Positions 29,510 to 64,000 of a stretch of DNA of 64,000 nucleotides are shown here, one piece after another. Source of the DNA: Eledone cirrhosa (lineage: Eukaryota); the NCBI GenBank assembly GCA_964016885.1, contig OZ024762.1, positions 14,074,001 through 14,138,000 of the forward strand, given 5' to 3'. The stretch's first letter is position 1. Every line of letters begins with the position of its first letter. A program made the position numbers and the translations under genes. The notes below the pieces were generated by a model. That model was not told the origin of the DNA. It saw nothing but the letters and a program-made list of their open reading frames with translations, and did not search any database.

Positions 29510-29600
29510 AAATGGAAAATATCTTTATAAAACCATATTTATTTTATTTTACATATTTTAAGGGTACCAATATGTTAGTATGCTTTCGTCAGAAAAAATA
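29510..29600 (-). mobile_element. Degenerate copy of the 40942/50618 hammerhead element
   Basis: Shares aatggaaa...tttataaaaccatatttattttatt. Core CTGACGA is present but GAAA is mutated to AAAA. Confidence 0.65.
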
Positions 29601-29830
29601 CAATATTTGGTTTAAAGATGGTGACATATCTTTATATGAACTTAATGTTATAAGTTCATTGAAGATAGTGAATAAATATTCAAAACTCAGGATAAATATG
29701 CTAATGAGGATAATGTTAAAAGTAAAAAGGACCGTTAAGTTTAGACGCTAGATATATTTTAAATAATCATCTAAATTGTTTTTTAAAAGAGGTTTGCTAT
29801 TAAATATATATATATATATATATATATATA

Positions 29831-29929
29831 TAGGAAAATGTTCAAGACCCCGACGGCAGAGTTACCCAAAGTATTGAGTACTCTCGTGCGCTATGGTCCA
29901 CCTGGTTCCTTACCACACATCCTTCGTTA
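29831..29929 (+). mobile_element. Internally deleted copy of the hairpin element (single arms also at ~31557-31605 and ~34752-34806)
   Basis: taggaaaa...gaccccgacggcagag is joined directly to the tail tacccaaagtattgagtac...ggttccttaccac, inside (TA)n. Confidence 0.75.
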
Positions 29930-32900
29930 TATATATATATATATATATATATATATATATATATATATATATACCTATACTACCATGGGGAGAGGGAGTC
30001 GAGAGTAGAGGGAAAGAGGTGAGAGAGAGGAACAGAGTGGGCAGAGATGGGCACGGTTAGATTTAGTAGAACAAGACACATCACATGTCACTATGGCGCC
30101 TCTTCAAACCCATCAGGAGTTGTTGGCTGAATGTTGGAACAATACACACATACACACACACACACACACACACACACGTGTATATGTGTGTAGATAGATA
30201 TGTGTGTGTACTTATAATATATATATGTATATAAGTATATGTATATGTATATCTATATATATTTATGTGAATATATATGTATCTGTATTTATATATATTT
30301 ATGTGTATATATATGTATATATATATTTGTGTATATATATGTATATATATATATATTTGTGTATATATATGTATATATATATATATTTGTGTATATATAT
30401 GTATATATATATATATTTGTGTATATATATATTTATATATATTTGTGTATATATATATTTATATATATTTGTGTATATATATATTTATATATATTTGTGT
30501 ATATATTTATATGCATGTGTCTGTGTGTGTATGTATATTCATTTATATGCGTATGTATATATATATATATATATATATATTTATAAATATATAAAAATAT
30601 ATATATATATATATTTATTTATATATATATATTTATTTATATATATATATATATTTATATATATATATTTATTTATATATATATATTTATTTATATATAT
30701 TTATTTATTTATATATATATATTTATTTATTTATATATATTTATTTATATATATATATTTATTTATATATATATATTTATTTATATATATATATATTTAT
30801 ATATATATATATATATATATTTATATATATATATATATATTTATAAATATATATATTTATAAATATATATATATATACATAATGTATATATATAGTGACA
30901 CACACTAAGATATCCAGTCGTACAATCATACGATGATCCATTATCAGCCATACACACACACACACACACACACACACATATATATACACACACATACATA
31001 AATACCTATATATATATATATATATATATATATATATATATATAGATATCGACTTAGACACTTTGAGTTAGATTAATGCGAAGAAGAAGGAGAACAAAAA
31101 ACATAGCTTAAACCTTGATAAAAAACATAAACGAAGCCACAACATAGATGAATGCAGAATGTCTAAATACATCGGAATGGAAAGGAGGACTCCCAAAACG
31201 TTAGGTATCTTAAGTAAAGCTAAATAAGCTGCAGCTTAAACTACCAATAAAGCGAAATTTGAATATCATCTTCCATTAATACTTAAATGGGCGACAAATG
31301 TTTACACGCACACACAGACACGTGTATATATATATATATATATGTATATATATATATATATATATATATATATATATATATATATATATATATATATATG
31401 TATATATATATATATAAATGTATACTCTGAGTTCTTTCGTCACACACATGTGACATCAGTGATGCTATTATGTTTCCTTTCGTTGTATTGTTGTGTATAT
31501 ATATATATATATACAACAATATAACGGGAGGAAACATAATAGTATATATATATATATAGGAAAATAGTCAGGCCCCCGACGGCTGAGCTCCTGCCGTTTC
31601 AACAGCAAATTTCACCTCGGAATTGAACTACAAATCAAAACGTAAATCAGTAAAACAACTACCATTTACATTATAACTATAATATTAATTCTACTATTAT
31701 ATATATATATACACACGCACGCGCACACACACATACACACACACATACACACACACACACATACATACATACATACATACATACATTGTATCTCTCTCCG
31801 TCTTTCTCTCTCTCTCTCTCTCTCCCTCCGTCTCCCTCCCTCTCCCTCCCTCTCTCTCTCCCTCCGTCTCTCTCTCTCTCTCTCTCTCTCTCTCTCCCTC
31901 CCTCCCTCCGTCTCTCTTTCTCTCTCTCTCCCTCCCTCCCTCCGTCTCTCTTTCTCTCTCTCTCTCCCTCCCTCCCTCCGTCTCTCTTTCTCCCTCCCTC
32001 CCTCCCTCCCTCCGTCTCTATTTCTCCCTCCCTCCCTCCCCCCGTCTCTCTTTCTCTCTCTCTCCCTCCCTCCGTCTCTCTTTCTCTCTCTCTCCCTCCG
32101 TCTCTCTTTCTCTCTCTCTCCCTCCGTCTCTCTTTCTCTCTCTCTCCCTCTTTCTCTCTCTCTCCCTCGGTCTCTCTTTCTCTCTCTCTCCCTCCGTCTC
32201 TCTTCCTCCGTCTCTCTCTCTCTCTCTCCCCCGTCTCTCTCTCTCTCTCTCTCTCTATCGTCTTTCTCTCTCTCTCTCTCCATCCGTCTTTGTCTCTCCC
32301 TCCCTCCCTCCGTCTTTCTCTCTCCCTCCGTCTTTCTCTCTCTCTCTCTCTCTCCCTCCGTCTTTCTCTCTCTCTCTCTCTCTCTCTCTCCCTCCATCCC
32401 TCCGTCTCTCTCTCTCTCTCCCTCCATCCCTCCGTCTCTCTCTCCCTGCGTCTCTCTCTCCCTCCCTCCGTCTCTCTCTCCCTGCGTCTCTCTCTCCCTC
32501 CCTCCGTCTCATTCTCTCTCTCTCCCTCCGTCTCTCTCCCCTTCTCTCTCTCTCTCTCTCCTTCCCCCCTTCTCTCCGTATCTCTCTCTCCACCCCCTCT
32601 CTCTCTCTCCATCTCTCTCTTCCTCCTATGGAATCTCCAGCAATGAAGGGAAAGAACTAAGAATCATTAACAGACAAAATGGTGGACTTTCTATCTTTGA
32701 TTAAAGCAAACATTGGCAGCTGTCTTTATAATTCCCAGCTAGAATGGACAAAAGACTGACTGGTCAGTTTTATCAAGCATGCTGTGCAAATATCTACTTT
32801 GGCTTCTTCTTTGACCTTGTCCTAAGATATTAGCAACTTCTTACTGCAGTCTTCCCGCCGTTTTCTGACCATCCACTGACCAAGCAAAAGTTTAGCTATC

Positions 32901-34444
32901 AATAGATTTTCTGTATATTAAAGACTAAAGGCTTCAAAAGCTTCGTCATTTATGGCTGGGGGTGGTGGTAGCAGTGGGTGGTGGTGGACATGAAAAGGAT
33001 AGACGTCGCCTTAGGTGATGATAGTGGTTGCAGTGATGGTGGTGTTGATGGTGGTGTTGGTGGTTGTGGTGGTGGTGATGGTAGTGGTTGTAGCGATGGT
33101 GGTGTTGGGGGTGGTAGTAGCAGTGTTGGTAGTGGGGGCAGTGTATAGAAAAGTAGTAGTGTTGCGGAGGTGGTGGTGGTGGTGGTGGTGGTGGAGGTGG
33201 CTGTGATGGTGATAGTTTGTGGTGTTAATGGTGATGGTGTTATTTGGAATTGGTGATGCTGGTGGAGGTGGTGGTGTTGGGGACGAATGGAAGAGTAGAT
33301 AGTACTGTTGACAGATGTAACGGTGGTGGTGGGGGTGGAGATACCGTCGAATCCCAATCACGTCTAATCCGCAATTTTTAATCCGGGATACGGCAGAGAA
33401 TATCTTCCCGTAACGTCATCAGCCACGACAAGCAATTTCACTACCACCACCACCACCACCACCACACCACCACCACCACACCACACCACCACCACACCAC
33501 ACCACCACCACACCACCACATCACCACCACACCACCACCACACCATCACCACCACCACCACACCACCACCACACCACCACACCACCACTCCACCACCACA
33601 CCACCACCACCACACCACCAGCACTACCACCACACCACAATCACCACCACCACACCATCACCACCACCACCACACCATCACCACCACACCATCACCACCA
33701 CCACACCATCACCACCACTTCCACCACTATCACCATCACCACCACTTCCACCATCACCACCACCCACACCACCACCATCACCATCCACACCAACACGATC
33801 ACCGACAGTAACACCACCACCACCCCTCTCACACCACCCACACCCCTTTCACACCACCACCACCACCATCCACACTCGTCACCTGCCATACTTTGGCATC
33901 AATATCTAAGACTACCACAACACTAATATCGATTACCTCAGCCAATATAATATCGATACCTAAAATGACGGAGCGCTCCAACATTAAGATAGCATTTTCT
34001 AATGCCTTCCCCCCACCCCCCATACACACACGTATACACACACGTGTGTACATATGCACACACACACACACACACACACACACATATCTATATACACACA
34101 CACACATCTACACACACACACATATATAGTGTAAGTAGTTACGTTGATTATGATAGAAATGTTAATAGGAGAAAAGACTAACGACTTCAAACACAATTTT
34201 CCTAAGACATGCTTCAAGGATCAACACACGCACACGCACGCACGCACACACACACACACACACACACACACACACACACACACACACACACACACACACA
34301 CACGCACACGCACAACTACACAGATATTCTTTGGTTGTAGCTGTGTAAGTATGGATATATTCTATGGACATAACTTTGATGAAATTTGTCTAAGTATCTG
34401 AATATCACTTAGTTCATGAAACCCGGACTATGAACTAATATGAA

Positions 34445-62322: not shown

Positions 62323-63024
62323 GACATGGATCTCGGGAATTTTACCCGCCCTAGAAAAATATATTATATGCAATGATTTTCAGATTTCGAGTATATATTT
62401 CCGTGCAGTCGTTTAGCACAATGCTCAATAAAGATAACACTAATAGCAATATAAATCAGTCAAATGTTCTACTGACTAACTGAATTAAAATCAAACCAAG
62501 GCAAATATATTAAACAGATATCGCAATATATATATATATATATATATATATATATATATATATATATATATATATATATATATATATATATACATATATA
62601 TCGATAGAGAGAGATAGAGAGAATGGACAATCAGTTATTGGGACAGATCGATATGACTATCTGGGCAGATGGATAACTTTATATACTGACATAATTCTAT
62701 ATACACACACAATGAAGTACACACATATACTGACGTACATACATAAAACCTCTCTCACACACACACATACAGATGTATAGCTTTATATACTGACATAATT
62801 TTACAGATTTACACATAAAACCTCACACAAATACACACACACCCACACACATCCCATCACTCACACACACACACTACAGCACACACACACCCACTTTACA
62901 GCAGAGGGAAGAAAGAGCCGACTCGTCATTGAGTTAAGTTTAGAGAAAGAGCAATTTCTAGCAAGAATTTCTTCGATATTTATTGGAAAATCAAACCTTG
63001 GATCAAACTATATATACTAGTGAA

Positions 63025-63450
63025 TATAACAGCAACAGTGACAACAACAACAACATATAACAGTGACAATAACAGCAACAACAACAACATATAACAGTGA
63101 CAATAACAGCAACAATAACAACATATAACAGTGACAATAACAGCAACAATAACAACATATAACAGTGACAATAACAGCAACAACAACAACATATAACAGT
63201 GACAATAACAGCAACAACAACATATAACATATAACAGTGACAATAACAACAACAACAACATATAACAGTGACAATAACAGCAACAACAACAACATATAAC
63301 TGTGACAATAACAGCAACAACAACATATAACAGTGACAATAACAGCAACAACAACAACATATAACAATGACAATAACAGCAACAACAATATATAACATAT
63401 AACAGTGACAATAACAGCAACAACAACAACAGCATATAACAGTAACAACA
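63025..63450. repeat. ~31-34-bp minisatellite, ~12 copies
   Basis: Unit acatataacagtgacaataacagcaacaacaaca with variable (aac)n. Confidence 0.92.
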
Positions 63451-63614
63451 ACAAAAGCAACAACAACATCGCTAACAAAAAACATTATTTCCATCACAAA
63501 ATATGTAACAAAAACTACAAGAAATATATATGAGAAAAATCAGGACAAGTTGTAAAATAAACACAGACATACACATTATATATATATATATATATATATA
63601 TATATATATATATA

Positions 63615-64000
63615 TAAAATATTAAACAAATAATGAATAAACAATTTCTTATATTAAACAAAAAAAGTTCATTATTTAACGATCGTTTCTAGGATATATA
63701 TGTGTTAGAGTTGGCATGCATATTCAACAGATCTATGTACAAAATTATACAAAATTATACAAACTATCAAGATTAAATATACATACCAACACATATATAC
63801 GCCGTCTTCAGAAATAATTATTTCTGAAGACGGCGTATATATGTGTTGGTATGTATATTTAATCTTGATAGTTTGTATAATTTTGTATAATTTTGTACAT
63901 AGATCTGTTGAATATGCATGCCAACTCTAACACATATATATCCTAGAAACGATCGTTAAATAATGAACTTTTTTTGTTTAATATAAGAAATTGTTTATTC
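63615..64000. mobile_element. Perfect palindrome of the PLE pLTR carrying two divergent hammerheads (runs off the window)
   Basis: Axis between 63817 and 63818 (gaaataa|ttatttc). 63635-63817 is the reverse complement of 63818-64000. The left arm is a close homologue of 44617-44821. Confidence 0.9.

Follow-up and report, generated by a model that had tools for sequence, protein, structure and literature searches.

Hammerhead ribozyme motifs in the introns of an octopod FAS1 gene are very probably the 3' ends of truncated Penelope-like elements

We analysed a 64,000-nucleotide stretch (the window) of the 3.0-Gb genome of the octopod Eledone cirrhosa (contig OZ024762.1, positions 14074001-14138000, assembly GCA_964016885.1), which is crossed on the minus strand by a fasciclin (FAS1) gene with small hammerhead ribozyme motifs in its introns. 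These motifs very probably belong to Penelope-like elements of at least five families, likely of the Hydra clade, whose hammerhead-bearing 3' ends (pseudo-long terminal repeats, pLTRs) lie as 5'-truncated and often two-armed stubs in TA microsatellites; the all-sense orientation of the unpaired copies relative to the host gene is likely a matter of chance. Coordinates are window positions unless a locus elsewhere in the genome (prefix L) is named.

The type I hammerhead motifs are real. CUGANGA (or a U3-A8 variant), GAAA and UH follow one another in type I order, and the copies first noticed at 36336-36402 (family C), 40942-41006 (family A), 42030-42084 (family B) and 44673-44823 (family D) satisfy a type I hammerhead descriptor, which finds minus-strand cores at 36396, 40998 and 42076 and, with a looser stem II rule, at 44815. 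The window gives three descriptor matches and its reversed sequence none, while 40 block shuffles give means of 0.075-0.3 matches (maximum 3, 3 and 1 at scores 11, 12 and 13). Other genes give 55 matches, against one in reversed DNA, and the density over the DNA examined, which is not a random sample, is 42-62 matches per Mb.

Two further copies are as described only in part. In the one at 50662-50726 the core is kept, yet stem III has lost its first pair to a C; this copy is below the descriptor threshold, and the core of its mirror arm (from 50731) reads CUUAUGA. At 63671-63964, a perfect 366-bp palindrome, cores are kept on both strands, with a stem I of only 7 bp; this copy, too, is below the threshold. 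Three copies are degenerate, as the initial annotation had it: 29540-29600 has lost GAAA and UH, 56163-56208 has a mutated core, and 60185-60225, with five relatives in the DNA examined, reads GACA.

Covariation across genomic copies is present in stem II. Among 41 distinct A-like copies, which are mutually related and were selected by a pattern that fixed part of their 5' strands, 95.8% of helix cells are paired and three stem II pairs carry two-sided changes (36 cells), a result reached in 0 of 500 shuffles and far above slid controls. Changes in stem I are one-sided only, stem III is nearly invariant, and measures based on pair counts are not above shuffles (366/500 and 500/500). An Rfam scan of the window (E<=5) gave no hammerhead family among the 150 listed of 479 matches, and all of those listed are false microRNA-type matches on microsatellites.

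The initial annotation counted at least four families, but the commonest, family E, had been missed; it has five copies in 29510-64000, on both strands, and its core reads UUGARAA or CUGAGAA. The description of the elements as tiny does not hold for 44673-44823, which is the 3' end of a 5.4-kb element. The window contains the following elements, where ORF is open reading frame, RT reverse transcriptase and UTR untranslated region.

44480-49835, minus strand: 5'-truncated Penelope-like element of family D, with an ORF remnant, a 3.1-kb 3' UTR with microsatellite, a pLTR with hammerhead and tail, and TA at both ends
47967-49832, minus strand: family D ORF remnant, 621 codons open, with RT (YRDD), CxCx5C linker and C-terminal GIY-YIG with CxxC..E and CxH
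44673-44823, minus strand: family D hammerhead with a 10-bp stem I, a stem II arm of ~120 nt, palindromic stem III ACGAUCGU and a GUU site
63617-64000, both strands: two-armed family D stub, palindrome centre 63817/63818 in the 5' strand of stem I, cores at 63811/63824; the plus arm, with tail, continues past the window into L031
36304-36570, both strands: two-armed family C stub between TA runs; hammerhead (core at 36396) on the minus arm, only the 3' end and tail, with no hammerhead, on the plus arm (36452-36570)
40914-41065, minus strand: solo family A stub, core at 40998
50530-50860, both strands: two-armed family A stub, minus arm tailed with core at 50718 and a stem III mismatch, plus arm with mutated core
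29509-29603, minus strand: degenerate family A stub
42017-42084, minus strand: solo family B stub, barely more than the hammerhead, core at 42076
56100-56215, minus strand: degenerate family B stub with tail remnant, not adjoining TA
60170-60232, minus strand: degenerate minimal hammerhead of a sixth family
59706-59900, both strands: two-armed family E stub, 3' half of the GC-rich hammerhead only, tail on the plus arm
53265-53458, both strands: two-armed family E stub, tail on the minus arm
29833-29927, both strands: short two-armed family E stub
34745-34805, plus strand: solo family E stub, hammerhead 3' half
31557-31630, minus strand: solo family E stub, degenerate 3' half

Exact patterns for the families match the genome 12,570 (A), 1,999 (B), 14,788 (C), 3,062 (D) and 54,367 (E) times, counts that represent arms rather than insertion events and miss diverged copies; the reversed patterns match 0 times for each family. 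Forward- and reverse-strand counts are equal in all families, gene direction not being considered. Family E is GC-rich and has a U3-A8 type core in many of its long copies, while its copies in the window are 3' halves only. Beyond these families, the test genes used below (L177-L316) contain about ten more hammerhead sequence types, some with a long palindromic stem III.

The D hammerhead and tail lead into an ORF at two loci (L054 and L062) that is 98-100% identical to the window ORF, and the 3' UTR of the window copy is common to other D copies, therefore we read 44480-49835 as one truncated element. At L100, an 85%-identical endonuclease precedes a D-type hammerhead. Family C has six loci (L145, L150, L152, L153, L159 and L201) where the end of an endonuclease and the hammerhead downstream of it are 0.7-1.1 kb apart, and two (L156 and L158) where an ORF starts downstream of the hammerhead. 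Family E has an upstream endonuclease at L113, L120, L128 and L129, and family A the C-terminus of one at L020. For family B, the endonuclease lies 3.2 kb upstream, across a microsatellite (L035/L036), and the nearer UTR is partly common to four other loci, including L102, L144 and L268. Thus, for each of the families A-E there is at least one place in the genome where a GIY-YIG endonuclease lies upstream of it in the same orientation, which bears out the proposed Penelope origin and goes against the separate non-autonomous mini-elements proposed alongside it. Based on motifs and tblastn, a single ORF with RT and GIY-YIG between pLTRs is seen from both sides for D and C, and by the upstream endonuclease only for A, B and E. 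The spacing between same-strand copies is ~6.7 kb for D and 3.3-3.9 kb for C.

Two observations concern the untranslated parts of these elements. In L054 (~1850-1990, oriented), a GT...AG stretch of ~90 nt, read by eye, lies between the D tail and the ORF start and resembles the intron that Penelope elements have in their 5' UTR. The tails of A, B, C and E, otherwise unrelated, share a short ACTC...GAGT motif, and those of B and E fold into similar hairpins; the motif and hairpin are a candidate signal for the element protein.

The preference for (TA)n noticed initially is borne out in the window, where 11 of 14 elements have an end within 15 nt of (TA)5+ (background 12%; ends set by eye). We surveyed 150 stub loci, 30 from each family (the first ones on contig 1); in 130 of them a TA run adjoins one of two fixed ends, 70-135 nt apart. 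An inverted partner is flagged at 101 of the 150 loci, with the tail on one arm in 76, on both in 3 and on neither in 22; where a tail is seen, it is on one arm only in 76/79 arm pairs, a figure to be read with a loose partner flag and with some insertions represented by both of their arms. Judged by eye, each of the six two-armed insertions in the window has a tail on one arm and none on the other. Truncation at the 5' end, an inverted 5' copy and an optional tail are all present.

The position of the 5' ends differs among families. In E, the ends of 23 of 30 loci fall inside stem II, no more than 24 nt from the pattern; in D, those of 10 of 30 fall within 4 nt, in the 5' strand of stem I; and in B, 53 of 60 distinct arms end at stem I, where they meet an inverted arm or a simple repeat. 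The 5' ends of C cluster 59-65 nt upstream of the core (13/30) and those of A spread mostly over 37-106 nt, both of which count against a general block by the ribozyme.

We infer that the stubs are aborted target-primed insertions. The element protein would nick (TA)n, and reverse transcription, with two possible start sites in the pLTR RNA, would mostly abort within ~100 nt. Two short cDNAs would then be joined head to head; in two-armed stubs, both target strands would have served for priming. Acting as a dimer or helped by protein, the ribozyme would process the RNA of tandem elements; in the stubs it would be a passenger.

The 3' UTR of family D may add to the supply of targets. Dinucleotide repeat makes up 40% of its 3.1 kb, and in 7 of 30 D loci there are non-repetitive 16-mers in common with the window that lie within this tract, over 600 nt upstream of the hammerhead, at offsets that vary by copy. 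Because 16-mers of the tract are common to copies at differing offsets, we consider the microsatellite tract to be part of the element and variable in length; the one long copy of family B has a similar tract. This microsatellite cargo could seed new targets. We tentatively propose, as an idea more likely wrong than right, a self-feeding loop in octopod Hydra elements, which would target (TA)n, carry kilobases of TA/TG microsatellite to new sites within their own 3' UTR, and have their own reverse transcription blocked by the folded hammerhead, so that most events would end as tiny two-armed stubs, with priming from both strands of the target at two start sites in the RNA. If true, this loop would account for more than 100,000 ribozyme stubs and part of the microsatellite load of the genome, and the stubs would serve, in their thousands, as natural snapshots of how Penelope elements insert, a mechanism still unsolved.

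The two arms could instead come from one cDNA that snaps back at a micro-palindrome or a hammerhead helix, the second arm being trimmed or annealed at the inner TA-like end. Several centres are indeed short palindromes or lie within ribozyme helices (63817 in the window), an inverted tail at L081 joins via stem I complementarity, and the inner end is TA-like in most families. However, overlap between the arms is often only partial and their 5' lengths are unequal, D and C commonly have long head-to-head pairs separated by kilobases, and both strands are reported to be primed in vitro, with two start sites used, by a Poseidon element (PMC11167929). We regard fold-back as possible though doubtful, and it would alter the mechanism rather than the identity of the elements.

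It is improbable that short RNAs like those of retrozymes or short interspersed elements (SINEs), mobilised by Penelope enzymes, are the main route by which some families (B and E in particular) amplify. Stubs vastly outnumber long copies, as the B arms ending at stem I illustrate, and the 5' core pattern of E has 1,692 matches against the 54,367 of its 3' half, a rough ratio as the two patterns differ in specificity. A search for continuations of the B tail into a 5' UTR gave two distinct places, and at one of them (L171) the tail runs into simple repeats with no ORF start seen; retrozymes have also been derived from pLTRs (Li et al. 2026 preprint, as far as its text was available). On the other hand, the junctions vary from copy to copy, which fits independent truncation and not a fixed unit. 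Neighbours of the same family lie head to head, and 500 listed places, viewed by eye, include one same-strand cluster within 500 nt (two adjacent E palindromes). Most E stubs are without the catalytic 5' half, and each family has an upstream UTR and endonuclease somewhere. The only retrozyme-like arrangement seen is in a myosin intron (L208:5241-6098), where a different family has two same-strand copies 467 nt apart and an inverted copy 390 nt before them.

The minimum-energy structure of the D copy (core at 44815) is a complete hammerhead (z -5.5). Eight more segments gave z values between -1.9 and +0.5; as monomers, A, B and C form stem I but not the catalytic fold. Stem III segments of A-D dimerise in silico at -4 to -14 kcal/mol. 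The hammerheads are predicted to cut RNA. The statement in the initial annotation that such ribozymes cleave efficiently as dimers disagrees with the literature available to us in part, where metazoan Penelope hammerheads are reported to cleave at low levels even as dimers (PMC4209133), and cleavage by the hammerhead of an anole element to depend on protein, with no reads at the cut site (PMC11167929).

All unpaired core-bearing copies in the window are on the minus strand and thus sense to the host gene, as first noticed (5/5 solo core-bearing family copies, p=0.062; 7/7 solo copies outside family E, p=0.016). The strand test covered 27 spans (1,317,500 bases) between same-strand exon matches of the myosin, spectrin and ion-channel families, a part of the spans listed, with one myosin span assumed to be intronic from a single exon. 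The 200 kb beyond the window (seven minus and four plus matches) were excluded because no upstream FAS1 exon was found there. In the 27 spans, the canonical descriptor gives 24 sense and 31 antisense matches (solo copies 12/19), with one match in the reversed control, and stricter scores give 14/21 and 11/17. The family search gives 65/74 for all copies, 22/30 for solo copies and 7/16 for solo copies with a core (p=0.093, in the antisense direction). A relaxed core leads to the same outcome (33/39, 20/26 and 15/21) and was not used as a basis, with 7-17 matches in reversed sequence. The suggested sense bias is therefore not a general one: the descriptor matches and the solo core-bearing copies of the other genes both lean antisense, which is the direction expected of selection against cutting, although not significantly. 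Pooling the window with the other genes gives 12/28 sense (p=0.57), and the orientation within the window is likely chance.

The gene-regulatory reading, in which selection keeps sense intronic hammerheads that cut the FAS1 pre-mRNA to tune its output, had given the observation its appeal. It draws on the sense orientation of the solo copies, on the D copy being modelled as folding in monomeric form and on the predicted dimers of stem III. Yet the other genes lean the other way (7/16 and 12/19), three of the sense copies are degenerate, and the window copies cannot dimerise with each other because their families and palindromes differ; activity reported for such ribozymes is low in the parts of the two studies cited above that we draw on (PMC4209133, PMC11167929). 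We find this reading very unlikely and not supported, and the finding is real but mostly ordinary. Terminal inverted repeats of miniature inverted-repeat transposable elements do not describe the stubs, as the arms are unequal and continue into element UTRs.

Several results weigh against our interpretation of the motifs as Penelope-like 3' ends oriented by chance. The links between families and ORFs come from separate 3-kb loci and not from one contiguous full-length copy; those of A and B are one locus each, and the B link spans a 2.5-kb microsatellite, where a nested insertion is possible. A Pfam search with the element ORF gave no RT or GIY-YIG match, only DUF7108_C (E=0.035), and the RWK motif reads RWR in D and RWI in C, with RxxRW kept. 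There may also be non-autonomous subfamilies. In strand, the window departs from the other genes (5:0 against 7:16, Fisher p=0.008), having been chosen for this very feature, and the strand test is small (23-55 copies), with spans that were set by Pfam exon matches and may include nested genes.

The host gene was correctly recognised as a minus-strand FAS1 gene; our analysis gives a Pfam Fasciclin match and identity to fasciclin-1 of Octopus bimaculoides (47 aa at 100% in exon 50949-51095). Six of its exons, from 13574 to 59595, are mapped, all on the minus strand.

59452-59595, minus strand: FAS1 exon, the most 5' mapped
59155-59268, minus strand: FAS1 exon
50949-51095, minus strand: FAS1 exon with the Pfam Fasciclin match
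35254-35421, minus strand: FAS1 exon
29103-29252, minus strand: FAS1 exon
13574-13726, minus strand: FAS1 exon

No further 5' FAS1 exon was found in the 200 kb beyond the window, and 59600-64000 is taken to be intron from the splice acceptor alone. A low-complexity ORF of 1,085 codons (L041:2188-5442, plus strand) and an exon (L046:8650-9160, plus strand), which we take to resemble an organic-anion transporter, lie 100-160 kb beyond the window and probably delimit the FAS1 gene on its 5' side.

More than half of the window is tandem repeat (36,449 bases masked). The intron between exons 29103 and 13726 contains an 11.4-kb satellite (13711-25094; 46-bp unit, 247 copies, 97% identity). An abundant repeat of ~190 bp, presumably SINE-like, is found in tandem and inverted at 7155-7695, 25162-25351, 26431-27120, 50102-50295 and 51677-51750. 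A 300-bp repeat, with several copies at 40004-40635 and 41117-41410, has ends that adjoin (GATA)n and not (TA)n, and is possibly another microsatellite-targeting element. Small two-armed inverted structures without a recognisable hammerhead lie in TA runs at 55419-55604 and 31465-31542, and one like 55419-55604 is also found beside L100. The 3' fragments of long interspersed elements (LINEs) at 55743-56141 and 62146-62355 are, we assume, RTE-like; CTGAGGA at 56072 and 62217 sits inside these LINE-like fragments and belongs to no hammerhead.

The elements are a known kind, new octopod families in a described clade. Their motifs suggest that they are likely members of the Hydra clade, defined by DKT, CxCx5C, CxxC..E/CxH motifs, canonical hammerheads and (TA)n insertion (Craig et al. 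2021, PMC8557442; the account here follows the available parts of that paper). DKT replaces DKG in D (L054) and C (L156), the CxCx5C linker and C-terminal endonuclease are found in D, C and E, and CxxC and CxH surround the conserved E and N in D, C, E, A and B. No CCHH-like match is present in the D, C, E and A endonuclease regions compared, and no GxKF/Y in the N-terminal parts of D and C. Canonical hammerheads and insertion at (TA)n, where 130 of the 150 loci end, complete the likeness, together with the order of RT and GIY-YIG and the hammerhead near the 3' end. The Naiad clade does not fit, as it has an N-terminal endonuclease and is without a canonical hammerhead, whereas GIY-YIG is C-terminal to RT here and a canonical hammerhead is present.

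For Penelope-like elements in general, the same study describes extensive truncation at the 5' end, inverted 5' copies and a tail that is not always present, and it calls the inverted arms, tails and microsatellite choice of Penelope-like elements an open question. It lists one Hydra element for Octopus bimaculoides, Hydra-1_Obim, with a hammerhead and a (TA)n preference; by eye, its listed hammerhead matches none of A-E. In contrast to that listing, Eledone cirrhosa has at least five families, with thousands to tens of thousands of stubs per family. The tails are 70-135 nt long here against 30-40, the units are longer than the typical '<3 kb', and the 120-nt stem II arm and the microsatellite inside the UTR are features of D's own (PMC8557442).

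The motifs also resemble the Penelope pLTR hammerheads described by Cervera and de la Pena (2014, PMC4209133), which are type I with a long stem II and a short palindromic stem III, and include a U3-A8 core variant as in family E. That work reports thousands of mostly single copies from truncated elements, with opposite-strand pairs 100-700 bp apart, and already reads the single and paired hammerheads as truncated Penelope elements; stem III of B, D and E is longer than the minimal form given there, and we found no treatment of cephalopods in the available text. The Poseidon element PAc of Anolis, in the in vitro results of Frangieh et al. (2024, PMC11167929), has its tail between two RT start sites, and both strands of its AT-rich target are nicked and extended, which is similar to the two ends seen here. 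It belongs to another clade, its hammerhead overlaps the ORF start, and we found no explanation of two-armed insertions in the available text.

Metazoan non-LTR retrozymes share the type I hammerhead, a short non-coding sequence and Penelope kinship (Cervera and de la Pena 2020, PMC7229834; Li et al. 2026), but are reported as units of 150-450 nt repeated head to tail, with circular RNA as a product, whereas copies of A-E come from coding elements, as single ends or as head-to-head pairs. The window has no head-to-tail repeats of this kind, same-family neighbours in the genome are head to head, and coding elements are found for the families. Among cephalopod surveys, as available to us in part, the giant squid genome paper gives 235 Hammerhead_1 matches, and the main text of a 2026 repeat annotation of Octopus vulgaris has 'hammerhead' and 'Hydra' 0 times. 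In an incomplete literature library, we found nothing relevant on microsatellite birth by Penelope elements, template switching with hammerheads or intronic orientation. The families described here extend a described clade, likely Hydra, by several octopod members with very large numbers of hammerhead stubs, and their near-identical recent copies, intact reading frames and thousands of junctions make the insertion question testable.

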